This document shows positions 1,153 through 30,963 of a stretch of DNA of 43,628 nt, piece by piece (positions within the stretch are counted from its first letter, which is position 1; each line of letters begins with the position of its first letter). The notes under the pieces are model-generated. The model searched no databases and was not told where the DNA came from. It worked only from the letters and a program-made list of their open reading frames with translations. The translations under genes were made by a program, and so were the position numbers. Origin of the DNA: an uncultured Eubacteriales bacterium (lineage in GTDB: Bacteria > Bacillota > Clostridia > Christensenellales > CAG-138); contig CADBRR010000028.1 in NCBI GenBank assembly GCA_902797145.1, positions 1 to 43,628 on the forward strand. Direction: 5' to 3'.

Positions 1153-2169
1153 ATGAAAATAGTTGTTGATGCTTTCGGCGGCGATAATGCACCGAACGCA
1201 ATAATTGAAGGCACTATAATGGCAATGTCACAAAATCCTGAAATAGAAATAATATTTACAGGAATTAAAGACGTTATTGAAAAAGAGCTTGAAAAGTATA
1301 CATACGACAAATCAAAGGTCGAAATAGTCGATGCTCCGGAAATTATAACTTGTGAAGAAAAGCCAACTGTTGCCATAAAAAAGAAAAAGGAATCGTCACT
1401 TGTAAAGGCTTTGCAGATTGTTGCAGATAAGAAAGCTGATTGCTTCGTATCAGCAGGCAGTACTGGCGCAGTTCTTGCAGGTGCAACGCTTATAGTAAGG
1501 CGCATAAAAGGCGTAAAGCGTCCGGCACTTGCGCCAATCATACCAACTGTAAAGGACGATACAAAAGTTTTGCTTATAGATTGTGGCGCAAATGTAGATT
1601 GTAAACCACAGTATTTGCAGCAGTTTGCAGTTATGGGAAGCGCATATATGAAGTATGTAGAGCATACAGAAAATCCGAGAGTAGGACTTATAAATAATGG
1701 CGCAGAAGAAGAAAAAGGCAATGACCTTACAAAAACAACATACCAGTTGCTCAAAAATAGTACACCGGTAAATTTTGTTGGTAATTGCGAAGCAAGAGAA
1801 ATAAATTCAGGCGATTTTGATGTAGTCGTTTGCGATGGATTCGTCGGCAATGTTGCACTCAAGCTTATGGAAGGCGTTGCAGGAATGTTGATGAGTATGT
1901 TAAAATCGGAGCTTAAGGCTAATGTCAAGACAATGGTTGGCGCAAAATTGAGCATGGGCGCATTTAAAAATCTTAAAAAAAAGATGGATTATACAGAATA
2001 TGGCGGAGCACCGTTGCTTGGAATTGATGGCGGAATAATTAAAGCGCATGGAAGCTCAAATGCAAAAGCGTTTGCGGCTGCAATAAATCAGGCATATATG
2101 TTTACAAAAGGAAATATTGTAGAGGTTATAAGAGAAGCAATAATTGATATGGAACCCGTTGAGGATTGA
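1153..2169 (+). CDS. plsX: Phosphate acyltransferase PlsX
   Basis: VDAFGGDNAP, SAGSTGA, RPALAP, DCGAN, CDGFVGNVALK, KAHGSS motifs. Confidence 0.97.
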   Translation: MKIVVDAFGGDNAPNAIIEGTIMAMSQNPEIEIIFTGIKDVIEKELEKYTYDKSKVEIVDAPEIITCEEKPTVAIKKKKESSLVKALQIVADKKADCFVSAGSTGAVLAGATLIVRRIKGVKRPALAPIIPTVKDDTKVLLIDCGANVDCKPQYLQQFAVMGSAYMKYVEHTENPRVGLINNGAEEEKGNDLTKTTYQLLKNSTPVNFVGNCEAREINSGDFDVVVCDGFVGNVALKLMEGVAGMLMSMLKSELKANVKTMVGAKLSMGAFKNLKKKMDYTEYGGAPLLGIDGGIIKAHGSSNAKAFAAAINQAYMFTKGNIVEVIREAIIDMEPVED

Positions 2170-2194
2170 CATATTTTGATATTTGTTTTAAACT
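2166..2194 (+). promoter_or_regulatory. SigA-type promoter for acpP-rnc-smc-ftsY
   Basis: TTGACA-17 bp-TAAACT overlapping the plsX stop codon. Confidence 0.6.
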
Positions 2195-2266
2195 ATAAAC
2201 TGAATATTTCTTTATGGAATTATAAAATTATTAAAAATATTTGTATTATTGAAAGGTGGAATTATT

Positions 2267-2497
2267 ATGACTTTTGAAGAAATTCGTAAAGCTATTGCAG
2301 ATCAGCTCGGGATAGCTGAAGAAAAAGTAACAATGGATTCAAATCTTGTAGACGACCTCAATGCAGATTCACTCGATGTTGTTGAACTTATGATGGATCT
2401 TGAAGAAAACAGCGGTGTTGAGATACGTGATGAAGATCTTGTAAATATCAAGACAGTAGGCGATATAGTAAAATATATTGAAGAACATAAAGAGTAA
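2267..2497 (+). CDS. acpP: Acyl carrier protein
   Basis: Small acidic protein with [11 protein letters not shown] phosphopantetheine site; SD AGGTGG before ATG 2267. Confidence 0.96.
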
Positions 2498-2512
2498 AAT
2501 TCGGTACTATAA

Positions 2513-2536
2513 TGCCCGCATTTTATAATGCGGGCA
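2513..2536. promoter_or_regulatory. Stem-loop between acpP and rnc (no U-tract)
   Basis: TGCCCGCATT-TTAT-AATGCGGGCA, a perfect 10-bp inverted repeat followed by A's. Confidence 0.55.
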
Positions 2537-2582
2537 AAAAGTGTATATAAGATATAAATAAACACAGGAGATAAACGGTTAA

Positions 2583-3320
2583 TTGTTTATGGATGTTAAA
2601 AGGCGAGAAAAACTTGAATATGTACAAAGCAAGATAGGTTATACCTTTGATGATATAACTTTTCTTGATATTGCGCTTACTCATACATCATATGTAAAGG
2701 GCGAGGGCAGAAGGCTTACGCATAATGAGAGAATGGAATTTTTAGGCGATGCAGTTCTTGAATTTTGTGTGAGCGAATTTCTTTATGAAAATTTCCCTGA
2801 AATGGATGAAGGGACTATGACACGAATAAGGGCATATACTGTATGTGAAAGCGCACTTTATGAAGTGTCAAAAATGTTTGGGATAGGGGAAGCACTTTTA
2901 TTAAGTCATGGCGAAGAACATTCGGGAGGTAGACGCAAGCCATCGATTTGCTCGGATGCGACAGAGGCAGTTATTGGTGCGATTTTCCTTGACGGTGGCA
3001 TAAAGAATGCAAAATCGTTTGTTTTGAGCTTTGCGACTGAGTTTGTATATAAGGCTGTTAAGATGGCGAGCACGAAGGATTATAAAACTCTTCTTCAAGA
3101 AAAGATTCAGAGTACCCATGCAGGAACATTGCATTATGAATTAAGAGGTGAAAAAGGACCGGATCATAAGAAGACTTTTATGATGGACGTTCTGCTAAAT
3201 AATGATGTTGTCGGAAGTGGTGAAGGCGGCAGCAAGCAGGAAGCAGGACAACAGGCTGCAAAAGCGGCACTTGAATTTATAAACAGGGGCGTAAACAAAG
3301 GTGAGATTAACAAAGCTTGA
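2583..3320 (+). CDS. rnc: Ribonuclease III
   Basis: NERMEFLGDAVL signature, DATEAVIGAIFLD, C-terminal dsRBD (DYKTLLQE...SKQEAGQQAA). Start is TTG 2583 or ATG 2589. Confidence 0.97.
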   Translation: MFMDVKRREKLEYVQSKIGYTFDDITFLDIALTHTSYVKGEGRRLTHNERMEFLGDAVLEFCVSEFLYENFPEMDEGTMTRIRAYTVCESALYEVSKMFGIGEALLLSHGEEHSGGRRKPSICSDATEAVIGAIFLDGGIKNAKSFVLSFATEFVYKAVKMASTKDYKTLLQEKIQSTHAGTLHYELRGEKGPDHKKTFMMDVLLNNDVVGSGEGGSKQEAGQQAAKAALEFINRGVNKGEINKA

Positions 3321-6300
3321 AATAAACGGTTTTAAATCATTTGCAAAAAAGACAGATATAAGGTTTGAAGATGGAATAACGGCTATTGTAGGACCTAACG
3401 GAAGTGGAAAGAGCAATATTGTTGATTCTATCAGGTGGGTGCTTGGCGAACAAAGCGCAAAAGCGTTAAGAGGCACGAAGATGGAAGATGTAATTTTCGA
3501 TGGCACAGAGAAGTTAAGACCACTTTCATATTGTTCTGTTACCTTGACTTTTGATAATAGTGATGGCAGATTGCCTATTGATTTTTCGGAAGTCAGTGTT
3601 ACAAGGAAAGCTTATCGATCGGGTGAAAGCGAGTATGTTCTTAATGGAAGAACTTGTAGGCTAAAAGAAATTAATGAATTGTTTCGTGATACAGGCATTG
3701 GAAAAGAAGGCTATTCTATAATTGGACAAGGTAGAGTTGACGAGATACTTTCGGATAAGTCGAATGCAAGGCGACAAGCGTTTGAAGAAGCTGCTGGCGT
3801 AATGAAATATAGAACACGAAAGGAAGAAGCTGAAAGAAAACTTGATAATACGAGAAAAAACCTTGAAAGAATAGGCGATATACTTTCAGAGCTTGAACAG
3901 CGTGTTGAACCGCTTCGTGAACAGAGTGAAAAGGCAAAACAATATCTTGTTTTTCGTGACGAATTAAGAGATCTTGACTTGAATGTTTTTCTTGTTCAGC
4001 ATGAAAAACTCAATGAAAGAATAAAAGGATATAATGAAACAATAGTCGGAATAGATAGCGATATTGCTTTTCGTGATGAAGAATTTATACAAGTTTCAAA
4101 AAAATGTGATGATGGCGAAGTGGAAGAAAGAAAACTTGTAGATGAAATAAATGGCATTCAGACAGAGCTTATTGAGATTTCATCTCAAATTCAGGAAAAG
4201 GTTGGCGAATCCAACGTTTTAAAGGAAAAAAAGAATGCCGATGAAAAGCAGATAGAAAGAATTGAATTGAGCGATAAGCAAAGCGAAGAAAAGCTTATAG
4301 AATCAATAAATGTAATCGAAGAAAATAAAAAAACACTCGATGAAAAAAAGCTTGAGCATGAAAAACTCAATACGCAGCTTAGTGATTTTGAGCAGCAGTT
4401 TAATTCTTTGAATCAAGAAATAGTAGAAAACGAAGAAATGCTTGATTTGAAGCAGAACGCTGCATACGAAGCAATGAATAGGCTTTCTGAAGCAAAAACA
4501 AATATGTCAAGGCTTGAAACAATGAAAACAGCGCTTGGCGATAGACTCAATAAAACTTTCGGGCTTATAGAAGATTCGAAACAGGAAAACAAAGAGCTTA
4601 ACGAAGAACTTGAAGACGAAAATAAAAAGCTTGAAAAAATAAAAAATGAATGCAAAGAATCTGTTTTAAAGCTTGATGAATCAAGAAAAGTTATGGATTC
4701 ATACAACGAAGAATATAAAAGTTCAGAAAGAAATACGCATATTCTTGAACAACAGCTTAATACTGAACGATCAAGAAAACGTGTTTTGACCGAGCTTAAG
4801 GATTCGTATGAAGGTTACTATTCAAGCGTAAAAAATGTTTTGCGTGATAGCAAACGTGACATGGAACTTGCAAAGCATATAGAAGGCGTTATTGCAGAAA
4901 TAATTTCTGTGCCTGATGAACTTGAATCAGCTATAGAAATGGCGCTCGGTTCTGCGATGCAAAACATTGTTACTAAAACGGAATACGATGCAAAATATGT
5001 AATCGAATATCTTCGCTCAAGGAAATATGGAAGAGCGACCTTTATGCCGCTATCTTCTATGAGTTCAAGAACTTTAAGCAGAGATGAACGAAATATAATT
5101 GCAGTAAATGGCTGTTTGGGAGTTGCAAGCGAGCTAATTGGTTATGATGAAAAGTTCAGGAATGTAATTGAAAATCTTCTTGGAAGAACAATTATAACTG
5201 AGAATCTCGATATCGGTATAGAGCTTAATAAGAAGCTTAGGTCTTCATTGAGAATTGCAACACTTAAAGGCGATATAATAAATCAAGGCGGTTCAATGAC
5301 TGGCGGTAGCCTTCAGAAGCGTGAATTTAGCATTCTTGGAAGAGAACGAGAAATCAACGAACTCAATAAGATTTGTTCGGATATTGAAAGCAAAATTTCT
5401 GCTGAAAAGAAAAAACTTGATGATATTAAGAAAAAAGCTGATTTATCATATGAACTGTTCGATAAAGCAGGCAAAGAAGTTCATGAAAACGATATTGCCG
5501 TATCGAAGCAGAGCGATAAAATAAAAGTTTTGGAAAAATATATCGCTGAAAGTGATAAAAAAATTTTAGAACTTACACTCGAAAAAGAACAGCTTGAAGA
5601 TAATTTAAAAGACGTTGAATCGCAGATAAATGAAGCTGCCAACGCAAGCGAAACAATTGAAAAGGGTAGTGATTCTTCTAAAGACGATATAAAGCTTATG
5701 CAAAAGAACTTGACGACTATGCGTGAAAGGTTGAATGGTTTGAGCAATTCTGTTTCAGAAACGAAAATAAAGCTTGTAGCGAACGAAAAGGAAATTTCAG
5801 GAATAGAAAAGGAAAATTCGAGAGTTCGTGATGAAATTGAAAATAGAAAGAATGCAAAAGCGAAAGGTATTGATGAAATATCGGAGCTTAAAAATGAGAT
5901 TGAGAACTTGAGCGTAAAGCTTGAAGCGGTAGAAAAGACTATTGCCGCTGATATGCTTGAAAAACAAAAACTCGATGATAAACTTAAAAATATTGATAAT
6001 CTCAAAAATCAGCATATTGAAAAGCTAAATAATTATCGAATAAAGCGAGATGAGCTTAACCAAGAAATCCAGCAGTTGCGTGAACGAAGACATAGAATTG
6101 AATTGAATCTAAACAAATCCGAAATGGAATTACAGCAGATGCAGGATAGAATATGGAACGATTATCAGCTTACATATGATAATATCAATCCTGTTACGAA
6201 AATTACAAGCGTTTCTGCTGCACATCTAAGAATTGATGAGCTGAAAAAGCTTATAAGGGAATTGGGTAGCGTTAATGTTGATTCTATAGAGGATTATGAA

Positions 6301-13361: not shown

Positions 13362-13989
13362 AATCAGCGAAGCCGAGCGATTGTACAATATGACGGAGCA
13401 TGAAAGAATGTTCTGGAATAAAGGAATAATCGTGGCAGGTATGGACGAGGTTGGCAGAGGTCCACTTGCAGGACCGGTAGTTGCAGCTTGCGTTGCACTA
13501 AATGGAGATGCGCTTATTGAGTATGTCAATGACTCGAAAAAAGTAACAGAGTTGCGCAGAAAAAAGTTATCGCCTATTATTAAAGAAAATGCTATTGCAT
13601 ATGGAATAGGATATGTCGATAACGAAGTGATTGATGAAATAAATATTCTTAATGCGACGAAGCAAGCATTTAAAATAGCTTTCGAGCAAATGAATAGCGG
13701 TGATATTAAAATAAGGAATGTGCTTGTAGATGCTGTAAAGGATCTCGATATCGACGCAGAGCAACATCCATTGATTCATGGCGATGCATTAAGCTACCTT
13801 ATTGCGGCAGCATCAATCATAGCTAAAGTAGATAGAGATGAATATATGATGAAAATGCACGAAATATATCCAGAATATGGATTTGATAAAAATAAAGGTT
13901 ATGGAACGAAACAGCATATTGATGCGCTTAAAAAATATGGTCCATGTCCGATTCATAGAAAAAGTTTTATAAAGAACTTTGTTAAATAA
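13351..13989 (+). CDS. rnhB: Ribonuclease HII
   Basis: GMDEVGRGPLAGPV, NDSKK, IAAASIIAKV, NKGYGT. Confidence 0.97.
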   Translation: MKNKISEAERLYNMTEHERMFWNKGIIVAGMDEVGRGPLAGPVVAACVALNGDALIEYVNDSKKVTELRRKKLSPIIKENAIAYGIGYVDNEVIDEINILNATKQAFKIAFEQMNSGDIKIRNVLVDAVKDLDIDAEQHPLIHGDALSYLIAAASIIAKVDRDEYMMKMHEIYPEYGFDKNKGYGTKQHIDALKKYGPCPIHRKSFIKNFVK

Positions 13990-13990
13990 T

Positions 13991-14350
13991 ATGTTTGATA
14001 AAATTAAAATAGGTAGTAACGGAGAAAAAATAGCGCTGAGATATTTAAAAAAACAAGGATATAAGCTGCTTGAAAAGAATTATCGAAAACTCAGATGTGA
14101 AATAGATTTAATAATGTATGATAAAAATACAAATTATTTAGTATTTGTCGAGGTAAAGACAAGAAGCGGCGATACATATGGTAGCGGTGCTGAAGCTGTG
14201 ACAAATTTAAAGCAGGAAAATATTATTAAGGCAACAACAGTGTATTTGAGAGAAAATAATTATTTTAACGAAAAAATACGATTTGATGTAGTCGAAGTTA
14301 ATGCTGAAAATAAAAATGTAAAACATATTATTTCTGCATTTACTTTATAG
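13991..14350 (+). CDS. yraN: YraN family (UPF0102) PD-(D/E)XK nuclease
   Basis: GEKIALRYL...EIDLIM...VFVEVKTR...RFDVV; follows rnhB. Confidence 0.92.
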   Translation: MFDKIKIGSNGEKIALRYLKKQGYKLLEKNYRKLRCEIDLIMYDKNTNYLVFVEVKTRSGDTYGSGAEAVTNLKQENIIKATTVYLRENNYFNEKIRFDVVEVNAENKNVKHIISAFTL

Positions 14351-14358
14351 AAAAAATT

Positions 14359-14378
14359 TGCTATTATTTGTAATAGCA
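14359..14378. promoter_or_regulatory. Inverted repeat upstream of the glycosyltransferase gene
   Basis: TGCTATTA-TTTG-TAATAGCA, perfect 8-bp arms, no U-tract. Confidence 0.35.
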
Positions 14379-14409
14379 GTAAAATTTCAAATGAAAGGAA
14401 AACAGTAAA

Positions 14410-17400
14410 ATGAAAAGAACACTTAGCTTTATTATTGTTGCTGTAATGGTGTTGATGGCGGTTTGTCCAACAGTTCTTGCTGAGAATAAGAACATATTCA
14501 AGGTGGATTTTAACACTGCTGTTTACGGCGATAATAATATTCCGAACGGATGGTCAACGCATGAATACGATTCGGGTATAAGTATGTTCCTTGTTGAAAA
14601 TGATGATACAAAGGGAAAATGTGTAAAAATAAGCAGTGGCTCTGAAAACGATGCAAGGCTTTGTTATGAACTTGCTGTTGAACCTAATACAAGATACAGA
14701 ATTAAATGCGAAGCAAAAGCTGTAAATGTAAAAGATGGGGCAGGTGTTTGCATTTCTGTACTTGGAACTTATGCGGTAAGTGATGGACTTCATGGCAACA
14801 CCGATTGGCAAGAACTCGAACTTGTAGGAAAAACTGATGCAAATCAGAAAAGTATGACGATATCACTTGCACTTGGCGGTTATAGCGCAACTTCGAGCGG
14901 TAATGCTTTGTTCAGTTCCGTTTCAGTTGAAACATTAACAGATGAGTATGCTGGAGAGGTAAAGGAGTTTTCGTATCCCCAAAATAATTCTAAAGCAAAT
15001 AACGATTCAGAAACTAATCCTTACTTAAAAGAAGGCAGAGTTCCGTATCTTGGTTATATCATTTTAATTGCTATAGTTTCTGCTATTGCCTTTACATTCA
15101 TTTATGGCAGAAGCATAAAGCCCAAAAATGTAATTAGTAATCCTGATAATGGTAGAAACAATATTACGGAAGTAATATGCTTTTTAGTGATAGCTTTGAT
15201 TTTTAGATTCATTCTATCGTTTGTATTTGTCGGGCATCCGACCGATATAGCTTGCTTTAAAGGTTGGTCAAATCTTGTATACGAAAAGGGATTCAGTAAT
15301 TTCTATACATCGGGTGTATTTACAGACTATCCACCAGGATATATGTATGTGTTGTGGGTAGTAGGATTTATTGCTGATATATTTGGATTGAAATCAGGTG
15401 CAGGATTTACATTGCTTGTAAAATTGCCTGCAATTATTGCAGATATTGCAAGCGCCTATATGGTATATAGAATTGCAAGAAGGATGAATCTTTCACATAA
15501 TAAATCGCTTGTTCTTATGGTTGTAATGGCACTCAATCCTATGATGGCATTTGTTTCGGGTGCATGGGGTCAGATTGATTCAATACTTACACTCTTGCTG
15601 ATAGCTGTTTGTCTGTGCTTTACAAATAAAAAGATTATTCTTGCAGGCGCAGTTTATGGTCTTGCAATTCTTGTAAAGCCCCAAGCGCTTATTGCTGGCC
15701 CAGTGCTTGCTGTAGCATATTTTGCGTTAATATTTGAGAAAGATTCTGAAGAGAAAATAAAGAATCCGATATTGAAAATATTGCTTGCAGTAGCTTCGGC
15801 TGTAGCTGTAATATTTGTTTTATCTCTCCCATTCAAGGGGAGTCAAGACCTGTTCTGGATAGTAGATAAATATGTTTCGACATCTACATCTTATCCATAC
15901 GCAACGGTAGAAGCTTATAATCTATTCGGATTGCTTGGAGGAAATTGGGAAAAAGTTGAAACAGCAGTTCCTATAATTGGAATAAGCTATAAGCTCCTCG
16001 GAACTATACTTATTGCACTCTCAATAGTGTTCGCAATGTATATGTACATAAATGCTCGCAAGAGTAATAAAAAAGGTGCTTTACTGTTGTCAATGGCATT
16101 TGCATATAGTGCAGTATTTTCACTTGGTCATTATATGCACGAAAGATATTTATATCCTGCAATCGTATTAACTTTATTTGCATTTTTGTACTATAATGAC
16201 AGAAGGCTGTTTAAGTGCTTTGCAATACAAACTATAGGAATGCTTATAAATGTTTTGGCAGTATTTGCAATTTCAGCAGGCAACGAGTTTAGAGGCGATG
16301 AATATAATGCAGTTGTTTATGTAGGGTCTGCAATAAATGTTCTAAGCTTCATTTACTTCACATATGTTTGCACAGACATAATGCTGTGCAAGAGGATTTC
16401 TCCTGCTTATGAAGGCAATAGAAAGGAAAAACAACTTCCGCCTGAAGAACAGGAAAAAGTAAAAGAACAAGAAAAACAGTCAAAACTTGAATCAATTTTT
16501 GCACCACGTGATACAAAATTGAATTTGACGAAAAAAGATATATTTATTTGCCTTGCGCTTACAGTAGTGTATGGATTTATTGCACTAACTAACCTTGGAA
16601 CAACACAAGCGCCTGTAACACAATGGGCTGCTAACTCTGCCGATGAAGAAATCGTATTTGACTTTGGCGGAACTGTTAATATAGCAGAAATACGAGCATT
16701 TGGCGGAATAGCAAGAAACGGTGTTCTTAAGTTTACTGACGATGCTGGTAATGAATATTCTCATAAGCAGGAATATACACAGATGTATAGGTGGTACAAG
16801 CTTCTTGATGCTAATACAAAGATACAAACATCAAAGCTTAAACTCGAAGTTAGCAGGGGTAGTGCTTTATATAATGAAATAGCATTTATAGATAACGATG
16901 GTAAGTATATACCTGTAAAAATAATATCGGGCGATGAAAGCGCATTGTTGCTTATAGATGAACCTGAACAAGTTCCTGCAAATCCATCAAATATGAACGG
17001 TATGTATTTTGATGAATTGTACCATGCAAGAACAGCTTATGAGCATCTTCATAATTTAGAACCATATGAAATAACTCATCCACCGCTTGGAAAGATTATA
17101 ACAATGGTTGGTGTTGCAATATTCGGTATGAATGCTTTTGGCTGGAGAGTTATGCCTGCATTGTTTGGAATATTTATGGTTCCGATAATGTATATGTTCG
17201 GTAAACGATTGTTTAAAAAATCCGAATATGCACTATTGATGGCTGGACTGTTCGCATTTGACTTCATGCATTTTGTTCAGACAAGAATATCAACTATTGA
17301 CGTTTATGGCGTATTCTTTATAATTTTGATGTTCTATTATATGTATCAATATTATAATATGAGCTTTTTTGCAGATGGATTGAAGAAGACCCTCAAACCG

Positions 17401-18243
17401 CTTGCGCTTGCAGGATTGTTCTTCGGTCTTGGAATTTCATCTAAGTGGATATGCTTCTATGCAGGCGGCGGACTTGCTGTTATATTGCTCATATCGCTTA
17501 TTAAGCGTTATAAAGAGTATAAGTTCGTTATGAAAGAAGGGGACGAGGAGCAGAAGAAAATTGTCAGAAAGTATTGGATAAATGTTATTAAGACATTATT
17601 GTGGTGCTGTGTTTTCTATCTTGCAGTTCCTGCTGTTATATATGTTGCATCATACTTGCCATATATGATTTTTGAGAACAATTATAGCTTGTCTGTTGTT
17701 ATTGAAAATCAAAAATATATGTTCAATTATCATAGTCAGCTTGTATCAACTCATCCATATGAATCTGAATGGTGGAAGTGGATAGTAATGATGAGGCCAA
17801 TGTGGTATTATAAGGGAGCATTTGCTTCAAGTGGAAACGGACAATCAATATCTGCGTTCGGTAATCCTGCTGTATGGTGGGGCTGCTTGATAGCTGTAAT
17901 TGCACTTATTGGAACGGTCGCTAATAACAAGAAGAAAACTAATAATGTTACTACAATAGCATTTATTGGAATAATAGCAAACCTGCTTCCATGGGTATTT
18001 ATATCTCGTTCAACATATATTTATCATTATTTTGCAACTGTTCCGTTTATAATCATATGTGGCGTAGAAATGATAAAGAATCTTGACGAAAAATATCCTA
18101 AATTTAAATGGATAAAGTGGGTATGGCTTGCATTGACTATTGCATTGTTTGTTGTATTCTATCCTGTTTTAACAGGAATAGAAGTACCTGTAACATACTT
18201 AAACTCACTTGAATTGTTTAAGAGTTGGGTATTTATGAATTAG
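14410..18243 (+). CDS. Multidomain membrane glycosyltransferase: signal peptide + CBM-like domain + GT-C (ALG6/8- or GT87-like) + GT39 protein O-mannosyltransferase (PMT)
   Basis: Signal peptide ending VLA-E; beta-sandwich PNGW...VEPNTRYRI...TDWQELE. First polytopic unit has DYPP, WGQIDS, KPQA and HERY. Second unit has PMT motifs YFDELYH, HPPLGK, FGWR, HPYESEWW, GNPAVWW and YHY. Confidence 0.85.
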   Translation: MKRTLSFIIVAVMVLMAVCPTVLAENKNIFKVDFNTAVYGDNNIPNGWSTHEYDSGISMFLVENDDTKGKCVKISSGSENDARLCYELAVEPNTRYRIKCEAKAVNVKDGAGVCISVLGTYAVSDGLHGNTDWQELELVGKTDANQKSMTISLALGGYSATSSGNALFSSVSVETLTDEYAGEVKEFSYPQNNSKANNDSETNPYLKEGRVPYLGYIILIAIVSAIAFTFIYGRSIKPKNVISNPDNGRNNITEVICFLVIALIFRFILSFVFVGHPTDIACFKGWSNLVYEKGFSNFYTSGVFTDYPPGYMYVLWVVGFIADIFGLKSGAGFTLLVKLPAIIADIASAYMVYRIARRMNLSHNKSLVLMVVMALNPMMAFVSGAWGQIDSILTLLLIAVCLCFTNKKIILAGAVYGLAILVKPQALIAGPVLAVAYFALIFEKDSEEKIKNPILKILLAVASAVAVIFVLSLPFKGSQDLFWIVDKYVSTSTSYPYATVEAYNLFGLLGGNWEKVETAVPIIGISYKLLGTILIALSIVFAMYMYINARKSNKKGALLLSMAFAYSAVFSLGHYMHERYLYPAIVLTLFAFLYYNDRRLFKCFAIQTIGMLINVLAVFAISAGNEFRGDEYNAVVYVGSAINVLSFIYFTYVCTDIMLCKRISPAYEGNRKEKQLPPEEQEKVKEQEKQSKLESIFAPRDTKLNLTKKDIFICLALTVVYGFIALTNLGTTQAPVTQWAANSADEEIVFDFGGTVNIAEIRAFGGIARNGVLKFTDDAGNEYSHKQEYTQMYRWYKLLDANTKIQTSKLKLEVSRGSALYNEIAFIDNDGKYIPVKIISGDESALLLIDEPEQVPANPSNMNGMYFDELYHARTAYEHLHNLEPYEITHPPLGKIITMVGVAIFGMNAFGWRVMPALFGIFMVPIMYMFGKRLFKKSEYALLMAGLFAFDFMHFVQTRISTIDVYGVFFIILMFYYMYQYYNMSFFADGLKKTLKPLALAGLFFGLGISSKWICFYAGGGLAVILLISLIKRYKEYKFVMKEGDEEQKKIVRKYWINVIKTLLWCCVFYLAVPAVIYVASYLPYMIFENNYSLSVVIENQKYMFNYHSQLVSTHPYESEWWKWIVMMRPMWYYKGAFASSGNGQSISAFGNPAVWWGCLIAVIALIGTVANNKKKTNNVTTIAFIGIIANLLPWVFISRSTYIYHYFATVPFIIICGVEMIKNLDEKYPKFKWIKWVWLALTIALFVVFYPVLTGIEVPVTYLNSLELFKSWVFMN

Positions 18244-18260
18244 TAAAGAAGTTAGCTTAA

Positions 18261-18317
18261 ATACAGGTGGTTTTGCAATTTGTTTAAAGCAAATTGCAAA
18301 ATCTACTTGTATATTTT
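18261..18317 (+). terminator. Long hairpin after the PMT gene (probable terminator or processing site)
   Basis: TTTTGCAATTTG/CAAATTGCAAAA perfect 12-bp stem, extended by ATACAGGTGG/CTACTTGTAT (G-U pairs), then ATTTT. Confidence 0.6.
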
Positions 18318-18334
18318 AAAATATGTGGTAGAAT
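18307..18334 (+). promoter_or_regulatory. Possible SigA-type promoter for gtrA-comM-dprA
   Basis: TTGTAT-16 bp-TAGAAT with extended TG. Confidence 0.4.
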
Positions 18335-18378
18335 ATTGAATTATATAATAAAGTTGTAATTTCGTTCGGAGGGTAAAA

Positions 18379-18837
18379 ATGCTAAAGAAAATTTTACAGT
18401 TTATAAAATTTGGTATAGTTGGAGTAATGAATACTCTTGTAGATTTTATTGTTTTCACATTAATATGCACAATTTTTGCAGTTGATAAGGATTCAGGATC
18501 TTTAATTGTAACAGTTATCAACCTAATAGCTTATTCTTGCGGTGTAGCAAATAGTTATTTCTTCAATACAAGATGGACATTTAAAGGTGAACGAAACGAA
18601 AACAGAAAAAAGGAACTTATACTTTTTATTGTTATTAATATAATTTCATATGTAGTAAATAATATGGTGCTCCTTCTCTGTAAGAGTATTCCGGCAATAA
18701 GCGGTATTGAACTGTTCGGAATAGAGCAATTCGGATTCTATGTATGTAAACTGATAGCAACAGCTGTTGGAATAATAGTCAATTTTGCAGGAAACAAGTT
18801 GTTTGTATTTAAAACAACTGATAAGATAGAAAAATAA
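18379..18837 (+). CDS. GtrA family lipid-linked sugar flippase
   Basis: QFIKFGIVGVMNTLVDF...NSYFFNTRWTF...KLIAT...VNFAGNKLFVF; four TM segments. Confidence 0.92.
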   Translation: MLKKILQFIKFGIVGVMNTLVDFIVFTLICTIFAVDKDSGSLIVTVINLIAYSCGVANSYFFNTRWTFKGERNENRKKELILFIVINIISYVVNNMVLLLCKSIPAISGIELFGIEQFGFYVCKLIATAVGIIVNFAGNKLFVFKTTDKIEK

Positions 18838-18854
18838 TATTAAAAGGGAAACAT

Positions 18855-20387
18855 ATGCTTTCAAAAATAAAAAGTCACGGATTAAACGGAATTAGTGGTT
18901 ATCCTATTCAAATAGAAGTAGATATATCAAATGGACTACCATCGTATGAGACAGTAGGGTTGCCTGATGCCGCCGTACGAGAGTCAAAAGAAAGAGTCCG
19001 TTCAGCGATAAAAAACTCAGGTTATGAATATCCTATGAGTAAGATAACTGTAAATCTTGCTCCTGCTGATACTAAAAAAGAAGGTTCTGTATATGATTTG
19101 GCTATAGCCGTGGGCATACTTGCAGCAACAAATCAAATAAAAAGTCTTAAATTTGAGGAGTTCTGCTTTTTCGGGGAACTTGCACTTGATGGAACAGTAA
19201 GATGCGTATCGGGTATACTTCCTATGATAATTGATGCTTATAATAATGGGAATACAAAGTGCATAGTTCCATATGAAAATGCCGCTGAAGCAGCGTATAT
19301 AGCTGGTACAACGATTATTCCAGTTAAAAATCTTGGTCAGGCAGTCAGGTATTTTAATGGTGAAGAAGATATAGAACCATATCCATTGAAATCGTGGAAT
19401 AATTCTGAAAATATAGTGCGTATGGATTTTTCTGAAATAAAAGGTCAGAATATTGCAAAAAGGGCAGCGGAAATAGCAGTATCGGGCGGTCATAATATTT
19501 TGCTTATAGGAACTCCGGGTTCAGGCAAAACTATGCTTGCAAGAAGCATTCCATCTATATTGCCTGATTTGACTTTTGAAGAAGCACTTGAAATTACAAA
19601 AATCCATTCCATAATTGGTGAAATAAAGGGGAATAATGGCATAGTAAATGAAAGGCCATTTAGAGCACCGCATCATTCAGCATCGCTTCCATCGCTTATC
19701 GGTGGAGGGTCAAAAGCATTGCCTGGAGAAATTAGCCTTGCGCATTATGGTGTGTTGTTCCTTGATGAATTGCCAGAGTTTAATAAAAGCGTTCTTGAAG
19801 CGTTAAGGCAACCGCTTGAAGATGGATTTGTAACAGTTACAAGGGCAAATGCGAAATCTGTATATCCGTCCGATTTTATGCTTGTAGCTGCAATGAATCC
19901 ATGCCCATGCGGAAATTATGGTTCAAGGATAAATGAATGCAGATGTACTCAGGTGCAGGTTCAGAGATACCAATCTAAAATAAGCGGACCGTTACTTGAC
20001 AGAATTGACATCCATGTAGAAATGACAGAGGTTGGATATTCCGATTTATCACAGGCAAAGCCATCTGAAAACTCTGCAACAATAAGGGAAAGAGTGAATA
20101 AGGCGAGGAAAATACAACGAGATAGATTTGAAAAAGATGGTATTATATATAATTCGCAGATGACTTCTGCGCTTATGAGAAAATATTGTAAGCTTGATAA
20201 AAAAGCTGAAACAATACTTAATGCGGCTTTCGATAACCTTCATTTGAGCGCAAGGGCGCATAGTAGAATACTCAAAGTTGCAAGGACGATTGCGGATGTA
20301 GAAGGTCAAAAGAATATTACTTCTGATAATATAATAGAAGCAATTCAGTATAGAAGCCTTGATAGAAAATATTGGGGTAATTTTTAG
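18855..20387 (+). CDS. comM: ComM/YifB family Mg-chelatase-like AAA+ DNA helicase
   Basis: VGLPDAAVRESKERV, NLAPADTKKEG, GTPGSGKTMLA, RPFRAPHH, LFLDELPEF, AAMNPCPCG. Confidence 0.93.
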   Translation: MLSKIKSHGLNGISGYPIQIEVDISNGLPSYETVGLPDAAVRESKERVRSAIKNSGYEYPMSKITVNLAPADTKKEGSVYDLAIAVGILAATNQIKSLKFEEFCFFGELALDGTVRCVSGILPMIIDAYNNGNTKCIVPYENAAEAAYIAGTTIIPVKNLGQAVRYFNGEEDIEPYPLKSWNNSENIVRMDFSEIKGQNIAKRAAEIAVSGGHNILLIGTPGSGKTMLARSIPSILPDLTFEEALEITKIHSIIGEIKGNNGIVNERPFRAPHHSASLPSLIGGGSKALPGEISLAHYGVLFLDELPEFNKSVLEALRQPLEDGFVTVTRANAKSVYPSDFMLVAAMNPCPCGNYGSRINECRCTQVQVQRYQSKISGPLLDRIDIHVEMTEVGYSDLSQAKPSENSATIRERVNKARKIQRDRFEKDGIIYNSQMTSALMRKYCKLDKKAETILNAAFDNLHLSARAHSRILKVARTIADVEGQKNITSDNIIEAIQYRSLDRKYWGNF

Positions 20388-30375: not shown

Positions 30376-30963
30376 CTATAAAACAATATCCGATAATGAT
30401 TTTATATCAAAAGCATCGAAATATTTGTTTTCAAGCGGAATCCATAAATTTGTGAATTTTTCAAGCGATTCAGCTCCGTTTCTTTCAAGGATTCGGAGCT
30501 TTTGTGTTTCATAATCAATATCCGTAAATATCTTTAAATCATAAAATCCCTGAAGTGTGGGGTGCATACTGTATGATCCCTCTATAATGTTAAGCTTTTC
30601 GGGAGTAACGAATATCTCTTTTGAAAAGTCGCATATAGAGCAATCATATACCCTGTATGAAAATGGTTTGTTACTCTGTATACCATTTATGACTTCCTCA
30701 TAAAACCTTTCGTGGTCTACATTCTCACCCGGTGTTGATAGTCGCTCTGCTGTTCTCATAGATGGAGTGAGAAAAAAATCATCCATATGAAAAACATTTG
30801 CATCATATCTATCTGATATTAGCTTCGCAAGTGTCGTTTTACCGCTTGCACTTTTACCATCAATTGCAACGATAATATTATTCCTGTTAGAATTTAATAG
30901 TAAATCTATTTTGCAGAAAATATTTTCAATTTCAGTTGAGCTTGCTGAGAAATTTTTCAACAT
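30376..30963 (-). CDS. Uridine kinase/phosphoribulokinase-like P-loop kinase
   Basis: IDGKSASGKTT Walker A, HMDDFF, IIEGSYS. Start uncertain (overlaps the upstream gene by 32 nt). Confidence 0.75.
   Translation of the reverse strand: MLKNFSASSTEIENIFCKIDLLLNSNRNNIIVAIDGKSASGKTTLAKLISDRYDANVFHMDDFFLTPSMRTAERLSTPGENVDHERFYEEVINGIQSNKPFSYRVYDCSICDFSKEIFVTPEKLNIIEGSYSMHPTLQGFYDLKIFTDIDYETQKLRILERNGAESLEKFTNLWIPLENKYFDAFDIKSLSDIVL

Follow-up and report, generated by a model that had tools for sequence, protein, structure and literature searches.

A tandem GT-C fusion protein with an adjoining gtrA in uncultured Clostridia: a candidate single-chain machine for protein O-glycosylation

What would a single bacterial polypeptide do with two different glycosyltransferases of the GT-C fold? 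The question is raised by a window of 43,628 nucleotides (nt), the whole stretch of DNA that was analysed (GenBank assembly GCA_902797145.1, contig CADBRR010000028.1), from an uncultured Eubacteriales bacterium of the Christensenellales. It holds an open reading frame (ORF) of 1277 amino acids (aa), here called the fusion protein, followed by a gtrA gene of 152 aa. An earlier reading of the letters, referred to below as the original prediction, took the pair for a machine that mannosylates secreted proteins and then extends the glycan; the ORF and gtrA were both found where it had placed them, as was every one of the motifs it had named. The best explanation of our results is that the fusion protein unites in one polypeptide two active, outward-facing GT-C modules fed by polyprenyl-phosphate-linked monosaccharides. 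By analogy with known enzyme pairs, we give a probability of about 0.5 to the reading that this one chain primes and then extends O-glycans on secreted proteins.

The second half of the fusion protein (module 2) was proposed to be a complete protein O-mannosyltransferase (PMT, family GT39) with its DE motif, and on this Pfam, fold and motifs agree. Pfam PMT matched residues 891-1082 with 73.3 bits (cut-off 22.7) and PMT_4TMC matched residues 1097-1273 with 77.5 bits (cut-off 32.4), while PMT_2 was above its cut-off on the fusion protein with 65.8 bits and, in a scan of the host genome, matched each half of the ORF separately with 43.3 and 49.6 bits. The order of the parts was derived from hydropathy and from two AlphaFold2 models, one of residues 1-700 (predicted local distance difference test score, pLDDT, 89.0; predicted TM-score, pTM, 0.85) and one of residues 690-1277 (pLDDT 89.3, pTM 0.91). 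The first transmembrane helix of module 2 was placed at residues 711-729, ahead of an inserted soluble domain and of the DE motif, and further motifs follow at residues 890-895 (HPPLGK), 1115 (HPY) and 1151 (GNP). In structural comparisons the best matches of module 2 were fungal Pmt4 and Pmt1-Pmt2, with Z scores of 33.3-35.4 and a root-mean-square deviation (rmsd) of 2.5-2.7 over 417-428 residues (Foldseek E 4.9e-13); the next match, ArnT, had a Z of 23.9, and the OST, Emb and Aft enzymes also lay far below the PMTs.

The first half (module 1) carries the motifs DYPP and HERY, from which the original prediction had guessed an ALG6/ALG8-type transferase, and the fold of this module was indeed nearest to ALG6. 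The yeast enzyme (6snh_X) was matched with Z 25.9 and rmsd 3.5 over 394 residues (Foldseek E 4e-6), followed by ALG3 (Z 24.3) and by PIG-M, the glycosylphosphatidylinositol (GPI) mannosyltransferase I (Z 24.0; Foldseek E 8.3e-5); across these three enzymes 358-394 residues were aligned at a sequence identity of 11-14%. Lower matches were PimE (9dm5, family GT87; Z 18.8), PIG-U (7w72_U; 18.6) and ArnT (18.0), and the PMTs reached a Z of only about 15. Pfam GT87 matched residues 304-564 with 33.0 bits against a cut-off of 25, and in the genome scan module 1, with 38.2 bits, was the only GT87 match. Pfam Alg6_Alg8 gave no match to the fusion protein at E <=1 and was above its 25-bit cut-off in six relatives (P0130, P0141, P0207, P0262, P0123 and P0139). 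In the ESM Atlas, module 1 falls among Bacillota clusters bearing GT87, PMT_2, Alg6_Alg8 and MptA_B_family. Judged by its modelled fold, module 1 resembles enzymes that lengthen lipid- or protein-linked glycans. Since their structural matches differ, the two modules belong to different GT-C classes and are no duplication, and the chain holds two GT-C folds rather than one.

The chain begins with a probable cleavable signal peptide, in which a K/R start, a hydrophobic core and the site VLA/EN can be recognized by eye, and which would be cut by signal peptidase I after VLA; A24 is conserved in at least 90% of the alignment rows. A lipobox at C19 (M-A-V-C) was also considered and is a poor match, so that VLA cleavage was preferred. 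The domain behind the signal peptide would lie outside the cell, an extra transmembrane helix (residues 213-236) appears to bring the chain back to the cytoplasm, and the K/E-rich linker between the modules is predicted to be cytoplasmic. As a rule the catalytic loop of GT-C enzymes is on the side opposite to the cytoplasm, and this, together with hydropathy and the models, points to a topology of outside-inside-outside.

Both soluble domains have folds of the carbohydrate-binding type. The N-terminal domain was matched to the hyaluronan-binding CBM70 carbohydrate-binding module (CBM) 4d0q with Z 16.5 and rmsd 2.6 over 144 aligned residues, and also to CBM4, CBM16, CBM22 and CBM61 modules (Foldseek E 3.1e-6). 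A family profile run against the sequences of the PDB found the same entry, 4d0q, with E 2.5e-6, while a phmmer search with the whole protein gave weak matches only; Pfam CBM_4_9 was weak on the fusion protein itself (E 0.089) and above its cut-off in two relatives (P0202, P0266). The predicted structure therefore confirms a CBM fold at the N-terminus. In the second domain, whose strands lie at residues 50-151 of the 690-1277 model, model residues 45-140 (residues 734-829 of the protein) were matched to the CBM32 structure 7d2a_A with Z 8.6 and rmsd 2.3 over 93 aligned residues. At the same position F5_F8_type_C was above its cut-off in three relatives (P0169, P0170, P0229), and this family is also among the precomputed assignments of several stand-alone homologues. 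The signal peptide, the extracellular CBM-like domain and the soluble domain just before the DE loop, all read from the letters in the original prediction, are thus supported.

A word-index homologue search returned 810 proteins at E <=0.001 among 8000 scored candidates, of which the best 120 were aligned; with the query excluded, these have 1211-1385 aa, 42-48% identity and 94-100% query coverage. As all 120 of these share the fusion architecture, it is not a product of chance. In every one of the 120 rows D306, Y307, P309, Y311, M576 and H577-E578-R579-Y580 are invariant in module 1, as are F867-D868-E869, H890-P-P, G894-K895, H1115, G1151, P1153 and W1156 in module 2. The invariant residues include the acidic ones expected of GT-C enzymes in the outer loop that follows the first transmembrane helix (D306 in module 1, D868/E869 in module 2), the placement in that loop being taken from hydropathy and the models, and since the motifs are invariant both modules look catalytically competent. 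A third reading, which we regard as very improbable, takes one module for a non-catalytic scaffold, so that the chain would amount to one enzyme joined to a structural partner. Its model is PIG-U, a subunit with the GT-C fold that lacks transferase activity; module 1 has PIG-U chains among its structural matches, and some relatives match the Pfam family PIG-U. Against this reading, the loop-1 Asp of DYPPGY and the HERY motif do not vary among the 120 rows, and the active enzymes ALG6, ALG3 and PIG-M outscore PIG-U.

Each of the two modules is found alone in other proteins, too. When residues 205-700 were run in a full HMMER scan, 4595 cluster representatives were obtained at E <=0.001, 717 of them at E <=1e-30, and these fell into groups of about 1200-1460 aa, with the layout of the present fusion, about 940-1135 aa, where the match begins at the N-terminus, about 610-810 aa and about 365-535 aa; the last two would be CBM plus module 1 and module 1 alone, respectively. 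In a Pfam scan of 33 proteins out of 150 listed relatives, those of 1010-1079 aa had PMT, PMT_2 and PMT_4TMC in 11/11 cases and GT87 (E <=0.001) in 7/11, and those of 439-526 aa had GT87 in 9/11 and Alg6_Alg8 in 6/11 (above the cut-off in 4 of those 6). Module 2 is common on its own, with 1910 matches in proteins shorter than 702 aa; many have about 590-600 aa and 41-45% identity over 95-100% of the module, and the records include named Paenibacillus and Bacilli. Among 301 sampled genomes of the order, 182 had a match at E <=1e-20, representing 99 of 151 genera, and in the family to which the window belongs such a match was found in 13 of 14 genomes. Two genomes carry the halves as split, adjacent open frames, of 720 and 696 aa in G297 and of 707 and 674 aa in G067; the frames in G297 overlap by 136 nt in different reading frames, and the split there may come from a frameshift or an assembly error. 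A 3.6-kb contig (L088, 102..2468) has a CBM-like match about 570 nt ahead of the point where its module 2 match starts, and module 1 was not detected on it; the protein may combine a CBM with a PMT, or the match may be to the loop-1 domain.

Table 1. Positions in the window of the fusion ORF, its parts and gtrA
Feature	Coordinates	Strand	Basis
Tandem GT-C fusion ORF, 1277 aa	14410..18243	+	ORF list, Pfam, homologue search
Signal peptide, residues 1-24, probable cleavage after VLA	14410..14481	+	Sequence reading; hydrophobic segment 5-23
Extracytoplasmic CBM4/CBM70-like beta-sandwich, residues 26-181	14485..14952	+	Fold and profile matches
Extra transmembrane helix, residues 213-236	15046..15117	+	Hydropathy; model helix 214-236
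GT-C module 1 (ALG6/ALG3/PIG-M/GT87-like), residues 249-666	15154..16407	+	Pfam GT87; structural matches
DYPP motif, residue 306, first outer loop of module 1	15325..15336	+	Motif search, alignment
HERY motif, residues 577-580	16138..16149	+	Motif search, alignment
K/E-rich linker, residues 667-705	16408..16524	+	pLDDT <50 at 674-700; gap-rich in alignment
GT-C module 2, PMT (GT39) type, residues 706-1277 (572 aa)	16525..18240	+	Pfam; structural matches
CBM32/discoidin-like beta-sandwich in loop 1 of module 2, residues 734-840	16609..16929	+	Model strands, fold
FDE (DE motif), residues 867-869	17008..17016	+	Motif search, alignment
gtrA, 152 aa, GtrA/DPMS transmembrane family	18379..18837	+	PF04138 E 1.4e-23

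The gtrA product matched Pfam GtrA_DPMS_TM with 83.8 bits against a cut-off of 26.1, and four hydrophobic stretches can be read from its translation, giving a small polytopic protein. The gene starts 135 nt behind the fusion ORF, and a scan of positions 13900..19000 found no terminator-like site in this gap; the two such sites in the scanned region, at 17401 and 17461, are both within the fusion ORF. GtrA proteins are regarded as translocators of polyprenyl-phosphate sugars, a family-based role that rests on genetic evidence only. The host genome (1.96 Mb in 162 contigs, 91.6% complete) has no PMT_2 match other than the two halves of the fusion. It has seven PF00535 (GT2) matches, of which none (0/7) is on the window's contig, which leaves the window without a GT2 gene, and the genome-wide search for a Ppm1/GtrB-like GT2 that the original prediction had proposed yielded two unlinked candidates that look like polyprenyl-phosphate-sugar synthases. 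The first, of 312 aa on contig C148, had its best scores with the PgfS model (258 bits, cut-off 500) and with ArnC-type models; the second is a GT2-GtrA fusion of 350 aa on contig C74 and was best against the PpgS and AglJ models.

Both candidates tend to accompany the fusion protein. With thresholds of E <=1e-70 for the best fusion match, E <=1e-60 for the GtrB-like GT2 and E <=1e-50 for GT2-GtrA, a strong fusion match was found in 154 of the 301 genomes; the GtrB-like GT2 was present in 113 of these 154 and in 11 of the 147 others, GT2-GtrA in 84 and 2, and either one in 130 and 11, respectively. As the genomes are related and the thresholds were set after the data had been seen, these counts are an association and not a test. 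In the genome of one relative from the same order (G001) a fusion of 1039 aa that is without the CBM, a GT2 of 320 aa that is 51% identical to the C148 protein and a GtrA of 156 aa follow each other in an operon; this operon (L095, G001:C13 5394..9855, minus strand) lies outside the comM context described below, and the next gene encodes an Orn/Lys/Arg decarboxylase. On contig C74 of the host genome (G000:C74) the GT2-GtrA gene (1486..2538, minus strand) divergently adjoins a gene for a transglycosylase of the class A penicillin-binding protein (PBP1) type (2678..3358, plus strand). PBP1a is a glycosylated target in streptococci, according to the accessible part of one study (PMC12041528).

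Taken together, these parts suggest the following mechanism. One of the unlinked GT2 candidates, the GtrB/PgfS-like protein of C148 or the GT2-GtrA protein of C74, would place a sugar on undecaprenyl phosphate at the cytoplasmic side, and the GtrA encoded next door would aid the passage of the lipid-sugar to the outer leaflet. The PMT-type module 2 would then add the first sugar to Ser/Thr of secreted proteins or lipoproteins, its discoidin-like loop-1 domain helping to hold the acceptor, and the ALG6/PimE-like module 1 would lengthen the O-glycan while the N-terminal CBM holds the glycosylated acceptor. The idea that one chain primes and extends has on its side the two complete modules and the precedent of the actinobacterial Pmt and PimE discussed below; our data show the domain anatomy, the folds, the conserved motifs, the synteny and the co-occurrence with the GT2 genes, and from these and the precedents we infer the donor lipid, the sugar, a protein rather than a wall polymer as acceptor, and the order of priming and extension. 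A wider version of the proposal is possible but doubtful: the single-chain, two-site O-glycosylation machine would be a core trait of the whole Christensenellales-like order of gut Clostridia, and its modules, each supplied by a separate synthase (the GtrB-like GT2 and GT2-GtrA), would use two different sugars, the first being attached by module 2 to Ser/Thr-rich linkers in lipoproteins and in wall enzymes that are secreted, the second by module 1.

Candidate acceptors of this kind were looked for in a scan for Ser/Thr-richness, counted on a non-overlapping set of ORFs. They include lipoproteins on contigs C120 and C85 that have Ser/Thr-rich linkers directly after the lipobox, and such a position is a pattern of mycobacterial Pmt substrates. 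Secreted proteins with Ser/Thr-rich linkers are also encoded on contigs C90, C4 and C79, and from fragments judged by eye we read these as putative wall hydrolases. With regard to other acceptors, a match of 132 bits to a TagF-type CDP-glycerol glycerophosphotransferase was seen in a frame of 155 aa (G000:C113:8536-8994, minus strand); it spans only profile positions 210-366 of 367, so that the gene looks truncated, and hints at a teichoic-acid-like polymer in the organism. The genome also has a sulfatase-family gene of 539 aa, possibly LtaS-like.

The fusion gene and gtrA lie in a block of housekeeping genes. Upstream are genes for ribosomal protein L19 (rplS), a YlqF/RbgA-type GTPase, RNase HII (rnhB) and a UPF0102 protein (YraN), and downstream of gtrA those for a Mg-chelatase-like ComM/YifB protein, DprA and topoisomerase I (topA). 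A scan of one genome per species gave 251 stretches encoding relatives, and in the best 80 loci, some of which are on short contigs, the order rplS-rbgA-rnhB-yraN-[fusion]-gtrA-comM-dprA-topA is mostly kept: module 1 is directly upstream of module 2 in 75 of the 80, a GtrA homologue comes immediately after the fusion in 71, ComM is found in 74, and YraN and RNase HII in 66 each. All of these 80 loci are from uncultured Clostridia, with Christensenellales, Christensenella, Pelethousia and 'Oscillospiraceae' among the titles. As the neighbours are conserved across related loci, the fusion gene and gtrA are a vertically kept pair of core genes and not an island. Elsewhere in the window the GC content drops to 0.305 at 28-30 kb, and at 30-32 kb the GC skew drops to 0.061 and the AT skew is negative; the sole minus-strand ORF of the window is at 30376..30963, counting ORFs of at least 150 aa that are not inside a longer plus-strand ORF. 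DNA near-identical to positions 14300..18900 occurs in sequencing runs of ruminant gut metagenomes, with 0.75 of the sampled words in one run (X1), which may be the source sample, and 0.42-0.44 in three more (X2-X4), spread over three studies.

Several observations weigh against protein priming and extension by the fusion protein. The folds of the two accessory domains would suit a glycan or wall-polymer acceptor at least equally. Module 2 scored 77.8 bits with the NCBIfam equivalog model for protein O-mannosyltransferase (NF058602), whose cut-off is 800, and because this cut-off was missed it is not an orthologue of actinobacterial Pmt. The fusion locus has no GT2 gene, homologues of either GT2 candidate were found in the flanks of none of the 80 related loci, and the putative synthase assignment rests on co-occurrence among related genomes that are not independent. 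The sugar is also at issue: the model for GDP-mannose pyrophosphorylase (TIGR01479) had no match in the genome, which at 91.6% completeness does not show absence, while GalU-model matches were below their cut-off. Other types of enzyme exist, too. Because both GT2 candidates lean to N-acetylhexosamine (HexNAc) or hexose enzymes (PgfS and ArnC; PpgS and AglJ) and TIGR01479 was not matched, mannose is doubtful, and the mannosylation of the original prediction is better read as glycosylation with a sugar that we leave unassigned and that is probably not mannose. As for the acceptor, the Ser/Thr-rich linkers are few, short and of a kind common in Firmicutes, which makes them weak evidence, and the proteins that carry them are candidates only; given the TagF-like fragment and the sulfatase-family gene, teichoic-acid-type acceptors may be available.

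Among the alternatives, the one that survives best, and which we still consider rather unlikely, is that the fusion protein works on a glycopolymer of the envelope (such as a teichoic acid, lipoglycan or secondary wall polysaccharide), building or decorating it, with one module starting the chain or a branch, the other extending it and the CBMs holding the glycan. EmbC and AftD, GT-C enzymes that bear CBMs, are a model for such polymer building, and in Firmicutes it is often a teichoic acid or wall polysaccharide that is decorated by three-component systems with GtrA. This alternative would account for the CBM folds of both accessory domains, for the MptA_B_family, GT87 and Alg6_Alg8 signatures of the relatives of module 1, which are those of glycan-acting families, and for the TagF-like and sulfatase-family genes, and a structural role in the envelope would agree with a core gene that has been kept vertically among housekeeping neighbours. 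YfhO homologues that decorate teichoic acids or wall polysaccharides are also mentioned in the available portion of PMC12041528. Nevertheless, module 2 has PMT_4TMC and is at least 10 Z units nearer to PMTs than to ArnT, Emb, Aft and OST enzymes, and the GT39 enzymes in the papers cited here, as far as their text was accessible, act on proteins, including one from a member of the Clostridia whose layout is like that of module 2. A literature search on Christensenella lipoglycans and relevant wall chemistry, with most subscription journals outside its reach, found no such polymer described.

It is unlikely, to a greater degree, that the modules serve two acceptors independently (a wall polymer and proteins, say), possibly drawing on different GT2s, and are fused only for the sake of co-expression and co-localisation. 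Two synthase candidates of different types co-occurring with the fusion would fit this, as would a separate binding domain for each module, the common stand-alone forms of both modules and a linker that is long and modelled with low confidence. On the other hand, the fusion has been retained among homologues of 42-48% identity, the halves have stayed neighbours in the split forms (G297 and G067), and the precedent of Pmt and PimE, as reported in the part of the source available, favours sequential action on one product. Priming and extension of protein O-glycans by one chain therefore remains the reading that we prefer, at the probability given above.

A natural fusion of a PMT-type with an ALG6/PimE-type enzyme is 'Rosetta stone' evidence that, in O-glycosylation that depends on lipid-sugars, priming and extending enzymes act together, and a single gene offers site-by-site access to the coupling of the steps, to the sugars used and to the surface protein or polymer targets, in a host lineage that abounds in animal guts and whose biochemistry has hardly been studied. 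Glycosylation of the GT39 type, tied so far to Actinobacteria, fungi, animals and one thermophile, would reach a broad group of Clostridia. If the two-site machine is real, a general bacterial pathway of protein O-glycosylation would have been built from parts like those of the endoplasmic reticulum (ER) outside the Actinobacteria; if the acceptor is a wall polymer, it would be the first non-protein substrate of a PMT-type enzyme, in comparison with the GT39 enzymes in the accessible text of the papers cited.

How, then, does the fusion protein compare with known systems? It shares with the ER enzymes ALG6, ALG3 and PIG-M the fold of module 1 and the conserved Asp in the first outer loop, and differs in being a bacterial protein, whose acceptor cannot be a eukaryotic-type dolichol-PP-oligosaccharide or GPI. 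Like the three-component Gtr systems of GtrA, GtrB and a GT-C protein it has gtrA beside the GT-C gene, and the full set forms one operon in G001; unlike them it has no GT2 in the window or in the flanks of the 80 loci, its GT-C partner is a double enzyme, and it is set in a housekeeping block, whereas Gtr systems are typically phage- or island-borne.

In streptococci, GtrB-type GT2s and outward-facing GT-Cs of the YfhO family O-glycosylate Ser/Thr-rich disordered regions of membrane-associated proteins, and in S. mutans glycoproteins carrying N-acetylgalactosamine (GalNAc) were lost on deletion of pgfS or pgfM1, while a pgfM2 deletion did no more than increase the mobility of PrsA in gels (PMC12041528, as far as accessible). 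The streptococcal Pgf (PgfS, PgfM1, PgfM2, PgfE) and GtrB/PgtC2 systems, as described there, resemble the present one in their GtrB-type GT2, the C148 protein being best against PgfS, and Pgf does so also in having two differing GT-Cs; the streptococcal GT-Cs are, in contrast, separate proteins of the YfhO family, which had no match in our genome scan. Module 2 can be compared with Cbes_1864 of Caldicellulosiruptor bescii, a GT39 protein of the Clostridia that has 556 aa: a signal or transmembrane helix at the N-terminus is followed by loop 1 with its CBM-like domain (aa 32-124) and then by the GT-C part (aa 169-558). Its deletion abolishes glycosylation of secreted (extracellular) proteins, according to the available part of the report (PMC6151902). 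Module 2 has the same order of parts, a likeness that is drawn from the family assignment and the described layout and not from an alignment, and differs in that Cbes_1864, in the text accessible, stands alone inside a glucan-degradation locus. The statement in the original prediction that no functional characterisation was known in Firmicutes is thus out of date for the PMT half. Within the reach of our literature search, from which most subscription journals were excluded, no other study of GT39 in Clostridia was found, nor any fusion of GT39 with a GT87/ALG6-like enzyme.

A direct precedent comes from the Actinobacteria. In M. smegmatis Pmt (GT39) primes and PimE (GT87) extends the O-mannose of proteins, and in other actinobacteria GT87 members appear to extend the mannose added by Pmt as well (PMC12757957, in the portion available). 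Like the Ppm1/Pmt/PimE set, as far as it is described there, the fusion protein combines a GT39 PMT-type with a GT87-like GT-C enzyme, both facing outward and presumably fed with polyprenyl-phosphate sugar by a GT2. Unlike that set, it is one polypeptide with a binding-type domain for each module and gtrA attached, its host is a member of the Clostridia, module 1 is nearer to ALG6, ALG3 and PIG-M (Z 24-26) than to PimE (18.8), the NF058602 cut-off is missed and the sugar is probably not mannose. Both parts of the fusion are known kinds of enzyme; by analogy, the fusion protein would be the fused counterpart of the Pmt and PimE pair.

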